5,612 bases of DNA. Source: a virus. Taxonomy: Duplodnaviria > Heunggongvirae > Uroviricota > Caudoviricetes. The notes under the pieces are model-generated. The model was given only the letters and a program-made list of their open reading frames with translations. It ran no database searches and was not told where the DNA came from. Positions 1 through 5,612 of the stretch are shown here, piece after piece (the first letter of the stretch is position 1; each line of letters begins with the position of its first letter). The position numbers and the translations under genes were made by a program. The stretch covers positions 1 to 5,612 of IMG/VR virus record IMGVR_UViG_2548876695_000002; one strand, given 5' to 3'.

Positions 1-73
1 TTCCATCAGAAACGATGATCTGGCAGCCTGAGTTCACAGATAAAACACTCTCCAGGAAAACCGGGGCGGTTCA
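1..73 (+). mobile_element. Right terminus (IRR) of an IS3-family insertion sequence, IS629-like; element body lies left of the window
   Basis: Plus strand ends ...CCGGGGCGGTTCA at 73. Its reverse complement TGAACCGCCCCGGTTTTCCTGGAGA matches the terminus at 5541 (TGAACCGCCCCGGAAATCCTGGAGA) at 22 of 25 positions, so the two are the paired terminal inverted repeats of one IS type. TGA...TCA termini are typical of the IS3 family. Confidence 0.6.
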
Positions 74-289
74 ATCAGAGTTTGATTCAGTAACGCGTAT
101 GGCAGCTAATTCAACATTATATAAATTAAGAATGTCGAGGATGTTATTTCTCACATACTTTAATTTTTCTGGTGTGTCTAAGGTCGAAGGTATTTTAATA
201 ACATCAACACATTTGAGTGCAGACTCATTAGTGCAATATACAACAAAAGATGTAACTTTGGGCGCCGCTCTAACACCTAGTATTCTCAT
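71..289 (-). pseudogene. N-terminal fragment (72 codons) of an unknown gene, truncated by the IS insertion; the stop codon TGA is the IS terminal triplet
   Basis: ORF begins with ATG at 289 and runs leftward in AT-rich DNA (about 28% GC in 121-180 by hand count). Its stop (plus-strand tca 71-73) is exactly the last three bases of the IS inverted repeat. No recognisable family from the sequence. The antisense ORF 15-308 is an alternative reading I cannot exclude. Confidence 0.35.
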
Positions 290-340
290 TTTTTATATCC
301 TATTTTAGAATCAGGCCGCATCTCTGCGACCATCCATCAT

Positions 341-355
341 CCAAACGTCTCTTCA
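341..355. repeat. 15-bp direct repeat CCAAACGTCTCTTCA, copy 1 (copy 2 at 712-726)
   Basis: Exact 15-mer present at 341-355 and 712-726. Copy 1 lies 2 nt 3' of the 113-aa ORF stop and copy 2 lies between the cI stop and that ORF's RBS. Confidence 0.8.
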
Positions 356-356
356 C

Positions 357-698
357 TCATCCGAAGAAGCAGCAATCCGGGTCAGCACGCACAAGCTCAA
401 GCGCATCAGTCAGCGAAAGTTCAGTACTGTACTGATGCCATTTCATATCCTTCCGCATCCAATAGATTTTCCATCTATCCAGAGAACGTATGTACTTGAT
501 TCTTGCTGATGGCAGGATGTTTGTTTCACCTGGATTGCCCTGCCACACGGGGCGCTGTTCGCCGATATCTATCGTTTGGTCATTGATGCTATAAACAATA
601 TCCAGTTCATTGCGGATATGTTCAGGCGGCCTTATGCTTTCAATGAATTGGTGAACTTCTTTTTTTACTGCTTGATATTCAAGGTCATTGAACGCCAT
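357..698 (-). CDS. Hypothetical 113-aa protein, accessory gene immediately downstream of cI on the same strand (position of lambda rexA/rexB)
   Basis: Intact ORF on the cI strand with a strong SD (minus strand AAGGAGGATAG-ATG) 4 nt upstream of ATG at 698. No signal peptide or transmembrane segment is evident; C-terminus ...DPDCCFFG. Family not recognised by eye. Confidence 0.6.
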   Translation of the reverse strand: MAFNDLEYQAVKKEVHQFIESIRPPEHIRNELDIVYSINDQTIDIGEQRPVWQGNPGETNILPSARIKYIRSLDRWKIYWMRKDMKWHQYSTELSLTDALELVRADPDCCFFG

Positions 699-711
699 CT
701 ATCCTCCTTAC

Positions 712-726
712 CCAAACGTCTCTTCA
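712..726. repeat. 15-bp direct repeat CCAAACGTCTCTTCA, copy 2
   Basis: Identical to 341-355; the two copies bracket the 113-aa ORF. Confidence 0.8.
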
Positions 727-758
727 GGCCACTGGTTACCAGCTATGTGACGATGAAG

Positions 759-1466
759 TCACGAACTTTTCAGCCACTCCCTTGCCTCGATGTCATCCAG
801 ATGGCGAGATTGCTTCAGAATACCAGCTACATACTCCACCTTTGCTACTTGATGATAAGGCAACGTTATAGGCCTGTGATCCTGGTTAATGCTTGTAAAT
901 TGGTATTCTCCATCTCTGTCATAGCCAAGAACCTTAATCATGTTGTGTCCTTCAACGGTTCTGACAAACACCTCATCACCCGGGAATACTTTGGTGTTAG
1001 GCTCAATGAGTACATATTCTCCTGATTTTATTCTGGGCCACATGCTGTCTCCTTTCACACGAAGACCAAAGGCATCTGGATCATCGCTATAAATTTTGAG
1101 CCACCCATCGCGCTCTTCGGTCATCTCGATGGCACCATCAACACCAAGAATTGCCTCACCAACCACGCGCACTAACCCTTTTTTTAATTTGCCAACAAAT
1201 GAAAGAGTATCTTCATCATTCGCTCCATTTAACGAAGTGCCGTGCTGAAGCCAAACAACATCAACGTTTAGAAATTTCGCAAGCGCATTCATTTTTTCCT
1301 GACGCGGTAAAGACTCAGCATTAAACCATTTGCTAACGCCTTTGGACGAAAGAGAAAGGGCACGGGCTATAGCCATTCCCCTACCATGTTCATCAAGACC
1401 AGCTTCTTTACAGGCTTGCGCTAGCCGCTGGGCGAATTCTTTGCGCACTTTTTCATTCTGAACCAT
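759..1466 (-). CDS. cI: Phage CI-type repressor (N-terminal HTH DNA-binding domain, C-terminal LexA-like S24 peptidase domain)
   Basis: 235-aa ORF. N-terminal HTH region (...GRGMAIARALSLSSKGVSKWFN...). C-terminal domain has GDSMWP (catalytic Ser) and a downstream Lys in ...HNMIKVLGY, the Ser-Lys dyad spacing of LexA/CI/UmuD. Transcribed divergently from cro. Confidence 0.9.
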   Translation of the reverse strand: MVQNEKVRKEFAQRLAQACKEAGLDEHGRGMAIARALSLSSKGVSKWFNAESLPRQEKMNALAKFLNVDVVWLQHGTSLNGANDEDTLSFVGKLKKGLVRVVGEAILGVDGAIEMTEERDGWLKIYSDDPDAFGLRVKGDSMWPRIKSGEYVLIEPNTKVFPGDEVFVRTVEGHNMIKVLGYDRDGEYQFTSINQDHRPITLPYHQVAKVEYVAGILKQSRHLDDIEAREWLKSS

Positions 1467-1544
1467 GAGTACGATACTAAAGCACTTGCAAAAACTTTCA
1501 GTTCAACCATAATACGTACTGAAAGTACGAAAAAGGATATTCCT
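1467..1544. promoter_or_regulatory. Divergent immunity control region (OR operators, PR rightward, PRM leftward)
   Basis: 78-bp intergenic region between divergent cI and cro. Rightward sigma70-like promoter TTGCAA (1486-1491), 16-bp spacer, CATAAT (1508-1513). Inverted repeats with GTAC cores: CGTACTgaaAGTACG (1515-1529), AGTACG at 1468-1473, and ACTTTCAGT (1494-1502) paired with ACTGAAAGT (1518-1526). cro SD AAGGA at 1533-1537. Exact operator boundaries are not determinable by eye. Confidence 0.6.
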
Positions 1545-1772
1545 ATGCAAAATCTTGATGAGCCGATTAAAGGTGTCGGCATCCCTGAAGTTGCGAAGGC
1601 TTGTGGAGTTAGCGAAAGGGCTGTCTATAAGTGGCTCAAAAACGGCTTCCTCCCTAAGACTGAGTTTTTTGGGAAAACTAAATACGCATCAAAAATCGAA
1701 GAGATTTCTGGTGGCAAATATCAAGCAAGCGAAATGCTTGAAATAAGCAAAAAGAACCTTCTGGCTGCATAA
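1545..1772 (+). CDS. cro: Cro-like HTH repressor
   Basis: 75-aa ORF divergent from cI, with HTH segment GIPEVAKACGVSERAVYKWLKNG; the position and size fit a cro gene. Not lambda Cro in sequence. Confidence 0.8.
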   Translation: MQNLDEPIKGVGIPEVAKACGVSERAVYKWLKNGFLPKTEFFGKTKYASKIEEISGGKYQASEMLEISKKNLLAA

Positions 1773-2265: not shown

Positions 2266-3178
2266 CTTCGGCAGAGGTAACTTTGCCGAACAGGAGCGTA
2301 ATGTGGCAGATCTCGATGATGGTTACGCCAGACTATCAAATATGCTGATTGAGGCTTATTCAGGCGCAGATCTGACCAAGCGACAGTTTAAAGTGCTGCT
2401 TGCCATTCTGCGTAAAACCTATGGGTGGAATAAACCAATGGACAGAATCACCGATTCTCAACTTAGCGAGATTACAAAGTTACCTGTCAAACGGTGCAAT
2501 GAAGCCAAGTTAGAACTCGTCAGAATGAATATTATCAAGCAGCAAGGCGGCATGTTTGGACCAAATAAAAACATCTCAGAATGGTGCATCCCTCAAAACG
2601 AGGGAGGTTCCCCTAAAATGAGGGACATCCCTCAAAACGAGGGAAAATCCCCTAAAACGAGGGATAAAACATCCCTCAAATTAGGGGATTGCTATCCCTC
2701 AAAACAGGGGGACACAAAAGACACTATTACAAAAGAAAAAAGAAAAGATTATTCGTCCGAGAATTCTGGCGAATCCTCTGACCAGCCAGAAAACGATCTT
2801 TCTGTGGTTAAACCGGATGCTGCAATTCAGAGCGGCAGCAAGTGGGGAACAGCAGAAGACCTGACCGCCGCAGAGTGGATGTTTGACATGGTGAAGACTA
2901 TCGCGCCATCAGCCAGAAAACCGAATTTTGCTGGGTGGGCTAACGATATCCGCCTGATGCGTGAACGTGACGGACGTAACCACCGCGATATGTGTGTGCT
3001 TTTCCGCTGGGCCTGCCAGGACAACTTCTGGTCCGGTAACGTGCTGAGTCCGGCCAAACTCCGCGACAAGTGGACCCAGCTCGAAATCAACCGTAACAAG
3101 CAACAGGCAGGCGTGACAGCCAGCAAACCAAAACTCGACCTGACAAACACTGACTGGATTTACGGGGTGGATTTATGA
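2240..3178 (+). CDS. O: Replication initiator protein O (origin-binding), lambda-like, with a 13-aa insertion encoded by two extra iterons
   Basis: 312-aa ORF with N-terminus MTNTAKILNFGRGNFAEQERNVADLDDGYARLSNML... and C-terminus ...TNTDWIYGVDL matching lambda O as I recall it (lambda O is 299 aa). SD AGGAG at 2230-2234. The extra 13 residues (roughly GSPKMRDIPQNEG) fall in the iteron-encoded linker. Confidence 0.95.
   Translation: MTNTAKILNFGRGNFAEQERNVADLDDGYARLSNMLIEAYSGADLTKRQFKVLLAILRKTYGWNKPMDRITDSQLSEITKLPVKRCNEAKLELVRMNIIKQQGGMFGPNKNISEWCIPQNEGGSPKMRDIPQNEGKSPKTRDKTSLKLGDCYPSKQGDTKDTITKEKRKDYSSENSGESSDQPENDLSVVKPDAAIQSGSKWGTAEDLTAAEWMFDMVKTIAPSARKPNFAGWANDIRLMRERDGRNHRDMCVLFRWACQDNFWSGNVLSPAKLRDKWTQLEINRNKQQAGVTASKPKLDLTNTDWIYGVDL
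2589..2712 (+). repeat. Origin of replication iterons (six O-binding repeats) inside the O gene, followed by an AT-rich unwinding region (2713-2760)
   Basis: Six ~17-18 bp inverted-repeat iterons: TCCCTCAAAACGAGGGA (2589-2605), TCCCCTAAAATGAGGGA (2609-2625), TCCCTCAAAACGAGGGA (2628-2644), TCCCCTAAAACGAGGGA (2648-2664), TCCCTCAAATTAGGGGA (2672-2688), TCCCTCAAAACAGGGGGA (2695-2712). Followed by ACAAAAGACACTATTACAAAAGAAAAAAGAAAAGATTATT. Confidence 0.9.
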
Positions 3179-5511: not shown

Positions 5512-5543
5512 CTATCAAATCAAATACGCCATCACACGACTGA
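5508..5543 (+). pseudogene. First 11 codons of the gene translationally coupled to ninB (ATGA overlap), truncated by the IS insertion
   Basis: ATG 5508 overlaps the ninB stop TGA 5509-5511, the arrangement at the lambda ninB/ninC junction. The reading frame MTIKSNTPSHD terminates at TGA 5541-5543, which is the first triplet of the IS inverted repeat. Confidence 0.4.
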
Positions 5544-5612
5544 ACCGCCCCGGAAATCCTGGAGACTAAACTCCCTGAGAAAGAGGTAAACAGGATGACT
5601 AAAAATACTCGT
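5541..5612 (+). mobile_element. Left terminus (IRL) and 5' end of an IS3-family insertion sequence, IS629-like; element continues beyond the window
   Basis: TGAACCGCCCCGGAAATCCTGGAGACTAAACTCCCTGAGAAAGAGGTAAACAGG-ATG-ACTAAAAATACTCGT matches the IS629 left end and OrfA start MTKNTR as I recall them. Inverted-repeat match to the sequence at 49-73. Confidence 0.75.
5596..5612 (+). CDS. IS3-family transposase OrfA, 5' partial (first 5 codons in window)
   Basis: ATG at 5596 preceded by AAAGAGG. MTKNTR is the remembered N-terminus of IS629/IS1203 OrfA. Only 17 nt fall in the window. Confidence 0.6.

Follow-up and report, generated by a model that had tools for sequence, protein, structure and literature searches.

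A DUF3024 gene behind the repressor of a 933W-type prophage, flanked by relics of lambda-type cI tails

The window, i.e. the whole 5612-nt stretch of DNA analysed, carries an exact 15-bp direct repeat on the two sides of one small gene located behind the cI repressor. Both copies of the repeat are untranslated relics of the tail of another repressor allele, since the window's own cI already ends with ..EWLKSS and its stop at 761-759. With a probability of about 0.7 the repeat is best explained as a relic module junction reused as short recombination homology. The region clearly exemplifies phage mosaicism of a known kind and reveals no new molecular mechanism.

Identity and distribution of the repeat

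The 15-mer, CCAAACGTCTCTTCA on the plus strand, is present in the window in exactly two copies, at 341-355 and 712-726, with a start-to-start spacing of 371 bp, and no third copy was found in the whole 5612 nt at up to 2 mismatches. The single ORF between the copies (357-698, minus strand) encodes the 113-aa DUF3024 protein. The positions, the spacing and the bracketing of one gene described in an earlier note on this DNA were found exactly, and both copies lie outside the ORFs called in the window, i.e. they are intergenic here as the note had it. Copy 1 does adjoin the DUF3024 gene, although it begins 1 nt past the stop codon (359-357) and not 2 nt as had been counted; copy 2 occupies nt 33-47 downstream of the cI stop (761-759), and 13 nt separate it from the ATG of DUF3024. 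The copies are identical over the 15-mer and no further on either side, the minus-strand 5' flanks being ..GGATGAG versus ..GTGGCC and the 3' flanks ATGA versus GTAA.

In the repeat search the 15-mer, a two-copy family, was the sole exact direct repeat of at least 15 nt besides the ori iterons. A chance repeat of no common origin, for which its short length alone speaks, can practically be dismissed: none of 200 dinucleotide-preserving shuffles contained two matches, both copies keep the cI frame and stop and have exact counterparts at intact cI ends, and the comparative data presented below refute it.

On the sense (minus) strand the 15-mer is TGAAGAGACGTTTGG, read as GAA GAG ACG TTT GG.. (EETFG), which are the final five codons of lambda cI; the lambda gene ends with ..CAG TGG CCT GAA GAG ACG TTT GGC TGA (QWPEETFG and stop). 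The match to the terminal lambda cI codons is 15/15 in both copies and extends to 23/23 (CAGTGGCCTGAAGAGACGTTTGG) in copy 2. No intact repressor ORF reads through the 15-mer in the window, where the ORFs in the EETFG frame comprise only 8-17 codons. The earlier view that the repeat is not explained by coding constraints was wrong as far as its origin is concerned: the motif is the tail of lambda-type cI, and in the phage population it is coding constraint on the intact genes that sets its sequence.

Intact counterparts of the relics listed in the table were identified in related phages. The sequence corresponding to 708-735 is in L229, L013 and 1717 the coding end of an intact cI located directly before DUF3024. 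An intact lambda-type cI is followed by DUF3024 in L013, L229 and L053, and in the 1717-type phages DUF3024 is present after lambda-type cI as a frameshifted pseudogene. The 38 nt from copy 1 to ..GAGATGC (318-355) are the sequence that follows CAGTGGCC of the intact L122 cI. The third S24 repressor class (..RIIGRVFWSSHSW and stop) is intact in L077, L040, L230, L233 and the Stx1a phage Stx1a_10051.

Features of the 933W-type immunity region in the window (a dot marks no strand)
Feature	Position	Strand	Remark
IS629 end inserted in L0083	1..73	.	Outside the repeat system; left limit of 933W homology
L0083, 5' part (PHROG 'RuvC-like')	74..289	-	First gene of the L0083-stk module after copy 1; truncated by IS629
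Hairpin GGTCGCA-GAGA-TGCGGCC	314..331	-	Post-cI terminator stem-loop of relatives; T-run here replaced by TGATTCT, with the L0083 gene next
Copy 1 with in-frame stop, TGAAGAGACGTTTGGATGA	337..355	-	cI frame ..SEETFG, stop TGA
Copy 1 of the 15-mer, TGAAGAGACGTTTGG	341..355	-	Non-coding relic of a lambda-type cI tail
DUF3024 gene, 113 aa, 933W L0084	357..698	-	Full-length Pfam DUF3024, E = 2e-31; candidate phage-defence gene
Spacer GTAAGGAGGATAG	699..711	-	Fossil-tail stop TAA (710-708) overlaps the DUF3024 Shine-Dalgarno AAGGAGG
Fossil lambda-type cI 3' end CCAGTGGCCTGAAGAGACGTTTGGGTAA, 28 nt	708..735	-	Reads NQWPEETFG and stop; 23 nt as in lambda cI
Copy 2 of the 15-mer	712..726	-	Part of the 708..735 fossil
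Second, older fossil CTTCATCGTCACATAGCTGGTAA, 23 nt	736..758	-	Reads ..SSSHSW and stop; tail of the third S24 repressor class (..RIIGRVFWSSHSW and stop)
933W-type cI repressor, 235 aa, HTH + S24 peptidase	759..1466	-	Ends ..EWLKSS and stop; tail unrelated to the 15-mer

A scan of IMG/VR for the exact 15-mer gave at least 120 loci, with 124 copies among the matches listed. Sixty-seven of the 124 listed copies form the end of intact cI ORFs with 150 aa or more, which belong to at least 3 diverged classes of C-terminal domain; 38 are relics or cases of unclear class and are preceded by ..GGCC, 6 come after DUF3024, and 13 are unrelated chance matches. All of the in-context copies (111 of the 124 listed) continue with GGN and a stop, past which they split into approximately 31 unrelated downstream clusters. 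The motif is not the genome-wide terminator or RBS-associated sequence that the earlier note had considered, 111 of the 124 listed IMG/VR matches being located at the ends of repressor genes.

The endings of cI homologues were also surveyed with a motif-independent query, the cI C-terminal domain minus its last 8 residues. QWP[ED][ED]TF(G) followed by the stop is the conserved protein ending in Enterobacterales, and this ending was absent from the Pseudomonas homologues recovered in the C-terminal-domain search. Codon identity at lambda-identical residues amounted to 71 % over the 8 final cI codons and to 43 % over the remaining C-terminal domain, a comparison that is based on 6-7 codons and on non-independent lineages. 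A lambda cI of 99 % identity was present in approximately 18 non-enteric assemblies (L130-L147; Shewanella, Kitasatospora, Capnocytophaga, Paenibacillus and others), frequently on short, low-coverage contigs, and it is probably laboratory lambda DNA contamination.

Reassortment of repressors and cargo genes around the tail

Window positions 74-1500 are 99.9-100 % identical to the immunity region of phage 933W and of many Stx phages. The gene order in 933W continues from L0083 to the stk kinase gene, L0081 and the annotated terminator tM of the pM transcript.

The junctions between modules are located exactly at the 15-mer. L002, in which the cargo is preceded by DUF3024 and the 15-mer, and L113, in which the same cargo is preceded by cI and the 15-mer, differ downstream by 1 mismatch in 900 nt, and L053/L231 differ from L122 by 2 mismatches in 721 nt; the likeness in each of the two module pairs is gone from the first base 5' of the 15-mer. 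The BLAST breakpoints against relatives were found at window positions 333-336, 347, 710, 720, 731 and 736. Those of Lambda_ev087 and PhiR12_4, which contain no copy of the 15-mer, were at 731/736. In the 80 IMG/VR loci compared, DUF3024 genes of 97-100 % identity are joined, almost freely and in many combinations, to 3 repressor contexts and at least 5 downstream modules. The two copies of the repeat in these 80 loci often differ from one another by 1-2 bases (e.g. AGAAGAAACGTTTGG upstream and TGAAGAGACGTTTGG downstream), which argues for separate histories of the two copies, and this pattern fits independent assortment better than fresh duplication.

As the earlier note had anticipated, relatives without DUF3024 carry a single 15-mer at the cI end. 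They include BP-4795, ST2-8624, L043, L058, L060, L076, L079, L093, L106, L118 and L291; in BP-4795, ST2-8624 and many IMG/VR contigs the 933W-type cI end is accompanied by both relics, one 15-mer and other cargo. Some of the relatives lacking the gene also lack the motif (PhiR12_4, Lambda_ev087), the outcome that the earlier note had named as a refutation; most of them do not. The exact empty site, comprising the cI tail, this particular hairpin and L0083, was found neither in IMG/VR nor among 60 sampled E. coli rows, where all full-length matches consisted of two pieces and thus represented the occupied state. The occupied arrangement was present in 186 of 5426 complete E. coli genomes. Approximately one third of the 60 E. 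coli rows, spaced evenly down the ranking, had a single copy and approximately one quarter had none, and approximately a quarter of the sampled E. coli matches break at window position 731.

The same motif also flanks another cassette. A 23-aa hydrophobic ORF (MREYLIVGVVTLLSVVAIVLMVA and stop) lies between two cI-tail copies 87 bp apart in L064 (7551-7652), L107 and L121; its ATG overlaps the stop of the first tail (TGATG), and it terminates at the TGA with which the second 15-mer opens.

In more distant lineages the tails on the two sides of DUF3024 are those of the local repressors. In Proteus/Providencia/Morganella prophages cI ends with CAATGGCCTGACGACACGTTTTAG (QWPDDTF and stop) and is followed by a DUF3024 homologue of approximately 40 % identity; in Proteus/Providencia the local cI end TGACGACACGTTTTAG is located on both sides of DUF3024, with at least 10 downstream contexts past the second copy. 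The downstream copy in Enterobacter asburiae, CTGACGAGACGTTTGGGTGA, is the Enterobacter cI ending, and in Erwinia and the metagenomic lineage L272 both copies contain CGTTCGG. The tail on the two sides of DUF3024 in Kluyvera is of the other, type-3 relic kind, ..TGGTCGGCGCAT[GA]G[TC]TGGTGA. Decayed copies were found in the 1717-type phages, in Salmonella SE1Spa and in L290; the DUF3024 ORF is intact beside them in SE1Spa as well as in L265 and L266, where the decay is of the 1717 type, and L290 is devoid of DUF3024. Given these local tail variants and decayed copies across lineages, the flanking repeat follows the local repressor tails yet is dispensable.

DUF3024 homologues nearly all end with FFG and a stop (alignments A2-A4; window 357-365), F111 being invariant and F112 and G113 at least 90 % conserved. 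The sequence TTYGGNTGA, common to this end and to the lambda-type cI end (TFG and stop), may have been the microhomology for the original join, or may be a coincidence. In L298 (Rouxiella badensis) two serial DUF3024 paralogues (552-893 and 1201-1542), separated by a DUF333 fragment, are present behind one S24 repressor and the tail copies bracket the second paralogue only.

Origin of the repeat and rival explanations

According to the proposed scheme, copy 2 in the form of the 28-nt relic would have come with DUF3024 from a phage in which DUF3024 stood directly behind a lambda-type cI, and would have been left behind as other repressors recombined in, first one of the '..FWSSHSW' class, which left the relic at 736-758, and then the 933W cI. 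Copy 1 would be another cI tail that together with the post-cI terminator hairpin constitutes the 5' edge of the L0083-stk module. This order of historical events is what we infer from the arrangement of the relics. In general, cargo that was once located behind cI would keep the final 15-35 nt of cI at its 5' edge, and relic tails would remain whenever two cargos are stacked or the repressor is replaced. The cI tail DNA, nearly invariant among co-circulating lambdoid phages, would provide a short patch of homology, and relic tails could be reused for exchange since they are identical to the live cI tails of these phages. A phage Red/Rad52-type recombinase or host RecA, acting by homologous recombination inside the 15-23 nt patch, would join any 'cI-tail + cargo' module to the cassette on its 3' side, and repressors of any kind on its 5' side, and the tail-DUF3024-tail unit would then act as a portable cassette in a defence-gene slot behind the repressor. 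Red-type recombinases are reported to act efficiently on diverged sequences and are proposed as a source of phage mosaicism (Martinsohn et al. 2008, PMC2327257). The decayed copies in 1717, SE1Spa and L290 are read as neutral decay in places that exchange has not reached.

Certain points count against the homology model: 15-23 nt is short for efficient homologous recombination, the exact empty site of the window's own flanks was missing from IMG/VR and from the 60 E. coli rows, homology does not account for how the 3' end of DUF3024 was first joined to a cI tail, the relic length of always 15-35 nt is narrower than random illegitimate joins predict, and the type-3 tails on both sides in Kluyvera call for one more event or for tails that were already stacked.

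The Kluyvera arrangement is one of the observations that suit an unlikely alternative, in which DUF3024 or a helper would have entered repressor 3' ends anew in each lineage, every time duplicating a target site of approximately 15-24 nt; in several lineages the repeat matches the tail of the local repressor, the unrelated Kluyvera tail included, its length is narrow (15-24 nt), and single-copy 'empty' sites exist. Promoterless genes between short repeats and 'empty' sites with one copy are likewise features of integron cassettes and transposons with target-site duplications. Unlike these, the region has no integrase, transposase, attC-like inverted repeat or terminal inverted repeats, and usual target-site duplications are shorter than this repeat. 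No tyrosine or serine recombinase is present in the window ORF list, no inverted-repeat pairs were found at the cassette ends, and DUF3024 has no likeness to a transposase or nuclease by sequence or fold. A transposon with target-site duplication was rejected for its missing terminal inverted repeats and transposase, and an integron cassette or site-specific site was rejected since there is no recombinase in the window ORF list, the folds around both copies are no better than those of shuffles and the unrelated tails of Kluyvera serve likewise. The earlier proposal of a duplicated module junction or a short recombination site was borne out in one half: a junction used in cassette gain is supported by the single-copy relatives and by the other cassette. 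Its other half, taken as a dedicated recombination site, has nothing pointing to it, in view of the missing recombinase and inverted-repeat structure, the decayed copies beside intact DUF3024 and the unrelated Kluyvera tail. It is also unlikely that repressor tails are selected 'docking' sequences, at which tail-gene-tail units (DUF3024, the 23-aa peptide) would loop out and re-enter or would be inserted by an unknown activity duplicating 15-24 nt. If this were true, the slot behind cI would be an integron-like, recombinase-independent cassette array conserved across Enterobacterales.

A functional nucleic-acid element, i.e. a motif acting in the pRM transcript or in DNA as a processing, protein-binding or translation signal, would account for the unusual conservation of synonymous positions in the cI tail, for the persistence of the downstream copy in distant lineages and for the TGATG that follows GGN in 11 of 31 downstream contexts. 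This explanation is nevertheless considered quite improbable. Downstream copies have decayed beside intact DUF3024 in SE1Spa, L265 and L266, and the sequence varies by lineage, with an unrelated tail taking its place in Kluyvera. No Rfam covariance match at E <= 1 was obtained for window positions 1-1600, and RNA folds around the two copies were no better than those of shuffles (z = -1.06 and 0.02). At the overlapping ATG there is mostly no ORF of at least 30 aa, and copy 1 in the window precedes a hairpin and not a start codon. Translational coupling of the cargo via the tail was rejected as an explanation in general, TGATG being frequent and long ORFs rarely starting there, and so was a readthrough or frameshift product across copy 1, the frame relation of DUF3024 and tail in E. 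coli being unlike that in Proteus.

The consensus scan showed no terminator or promoter at either copy, and no promoter-like site was seen between cI and DUF3024. The hairpin at 314-331 consists of a 7-bp stem followed by UGAUUCU with no U-run and does not qualify as an intrinsic terminator; the same hairpin with a T-run follows cI in L038, L050, L108 and 1717. In L290, at approximately 1744-1763 (GGCTGC-AGAAAC-GCAGCC), the hairpin pairing is kept by compensatory changes, also with no T-run before L0083-stk. Behind copy 1 the hairpin may represent a conserved stem with an attenuating or a stabilising effect.

The slot behind the repressor and comparison with known systems

The position downstream of the repressor appears to be a hotspot for defence genes, since DUF3024 matches the PADLOC candidate PDC-S43 (E = 5e-42), the stk gene of 933W (L009 215-1261) matches the PD-T4-6/mad6 models, and in Dryocola (L299) RexA/RexB are encoded downstream of DUF3024. 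The rexAB slot behind the repressor has also been described elsewhere (PMC2629481). In the papers on phages epsilon34 and L a rex-like slot is mentioned and cI-tail relics are not. Neither the cI-tail relics nor the 14-mer GAAGAGACGTTTGG was found in the literature searched, which excluded Degnan et al. 2007 on lambda-immunity wild phages; in the literature searched, DUF3024 is mentioned once, in a single paper, and PDC-S43 likewise once, in another.

As a relic junction reused for exchange, the region would illustrate at the level of base pairs how the repressor operon of lambdoid prophages has the accessory and defence genes that it expresses reshuffled, among them those located beside cI in Stx phages, i.e. 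DUF3024 (PDC-S43) and the stk kinase module. The conserved end of cI would serve as the common joint, and each swap would leave a relic of 15-35 nt. Stacks of relics would then record the order of past replacements of immunity and cargo. The tail pattern could be used as a simple marker for cargo genes behind prophage repressors, and it provides a testable case of recombination at very short homology.

Modular exchange of lambdoid phages at short linkers and gene boundaries is reportedly familiar from the Susskind-Botstein module theory and from the comparisons of HK97, HK022 and HK620. The present joints resemble such linkers in being located at a gene boundary, in the short conserved sequence between unrelated flanks and in the same cargo having different neighbours. 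They differ in that the linker is here the last 15-23 nt of lambda-type cI, forms a stack of relics and occurs twice around one gene.

Morons are said, after Juhala and Hendrix, to be extra genes of lambdoid prophages expressed from the prophage, and a classic moron has its own promoter and terminator. The DUF3024 gene is similar to morons and to the occupants of the rexAB slot as a small accessory gene of variable presence just downstream of the repressor, in the pM-tM operon in 933W. Unlike a moron it has no promoter-like site between cI and DUF3024, and no T-run accompanies the hairpin at 314-331. Having neither a promoter nor a terminator to itself, the DUF3024 unit was rejected as a strict moron.

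Relaxed recombination by Red/Rad52-like recombinases was reportedly studied by Martinsohn et al. in 2008 and De Paepe et al. in 2014 with longer homologies. It would be a plausible enzymatic basis for short, imperfect exchange between co-resident lambdoid genomes, whereas the exchange considered here would take place within 15-23 nt. The nearest analogy for the shuffling of repeat-flanked ORFs is the PeSL cassettes of T4-type phages, reportedly described by Arbiol et al. in 2010 as promoter and stem-loop units with a regulatory role. In both cases single accessory ORFs lie between short non-coding repeats, in the T4-type phages in a hyperplastic region, and are shuffled apparently by homologous recombination; unlike the PeSL, the present repeat is a relic of a coding tail with no sign of regulatory activity.

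Both ends of the window (1-73 and 5542-5612) are IS629 ends, so the segment from cI to ninB lies between two copies of IS629. The left one (IR TGAACCGCCCCGGTTTTCC.. on the minus strand) interrupts L0083 at a position matching 933W 11390, and the right one starts with TGAACCGCCCCGGAAATCC.. and takes in the orfA start ATGACTAAAAATACTCGT. The O gene holds six 17-nt iterons (ATCCCTCAAAACGAGGG and variants) at window 2588-2710, which constitute the lambdoid replication origin.

In phage lambda a relic is present between cI and rexA. The cI-rexA spacer (L001 2193-2228; lambda 37192-37227) opens with 35 nt, directly behind the cI stop, that read IGKVFWSAHS and two stops, and this is the tail of the third S24 repressor class (..RIIGRVFWSSHSW and stop). 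The type-3 relic tail (..CAT AGC TGG TAA/TGA) carries a near-Chi octamer that adjoins the recombination joint and matches GCTGGTGG at 6-7 of 8 positions; it is GCTGGTAA at window 736-743 on the minus strand and GCTGGTGA in L077 and L295.
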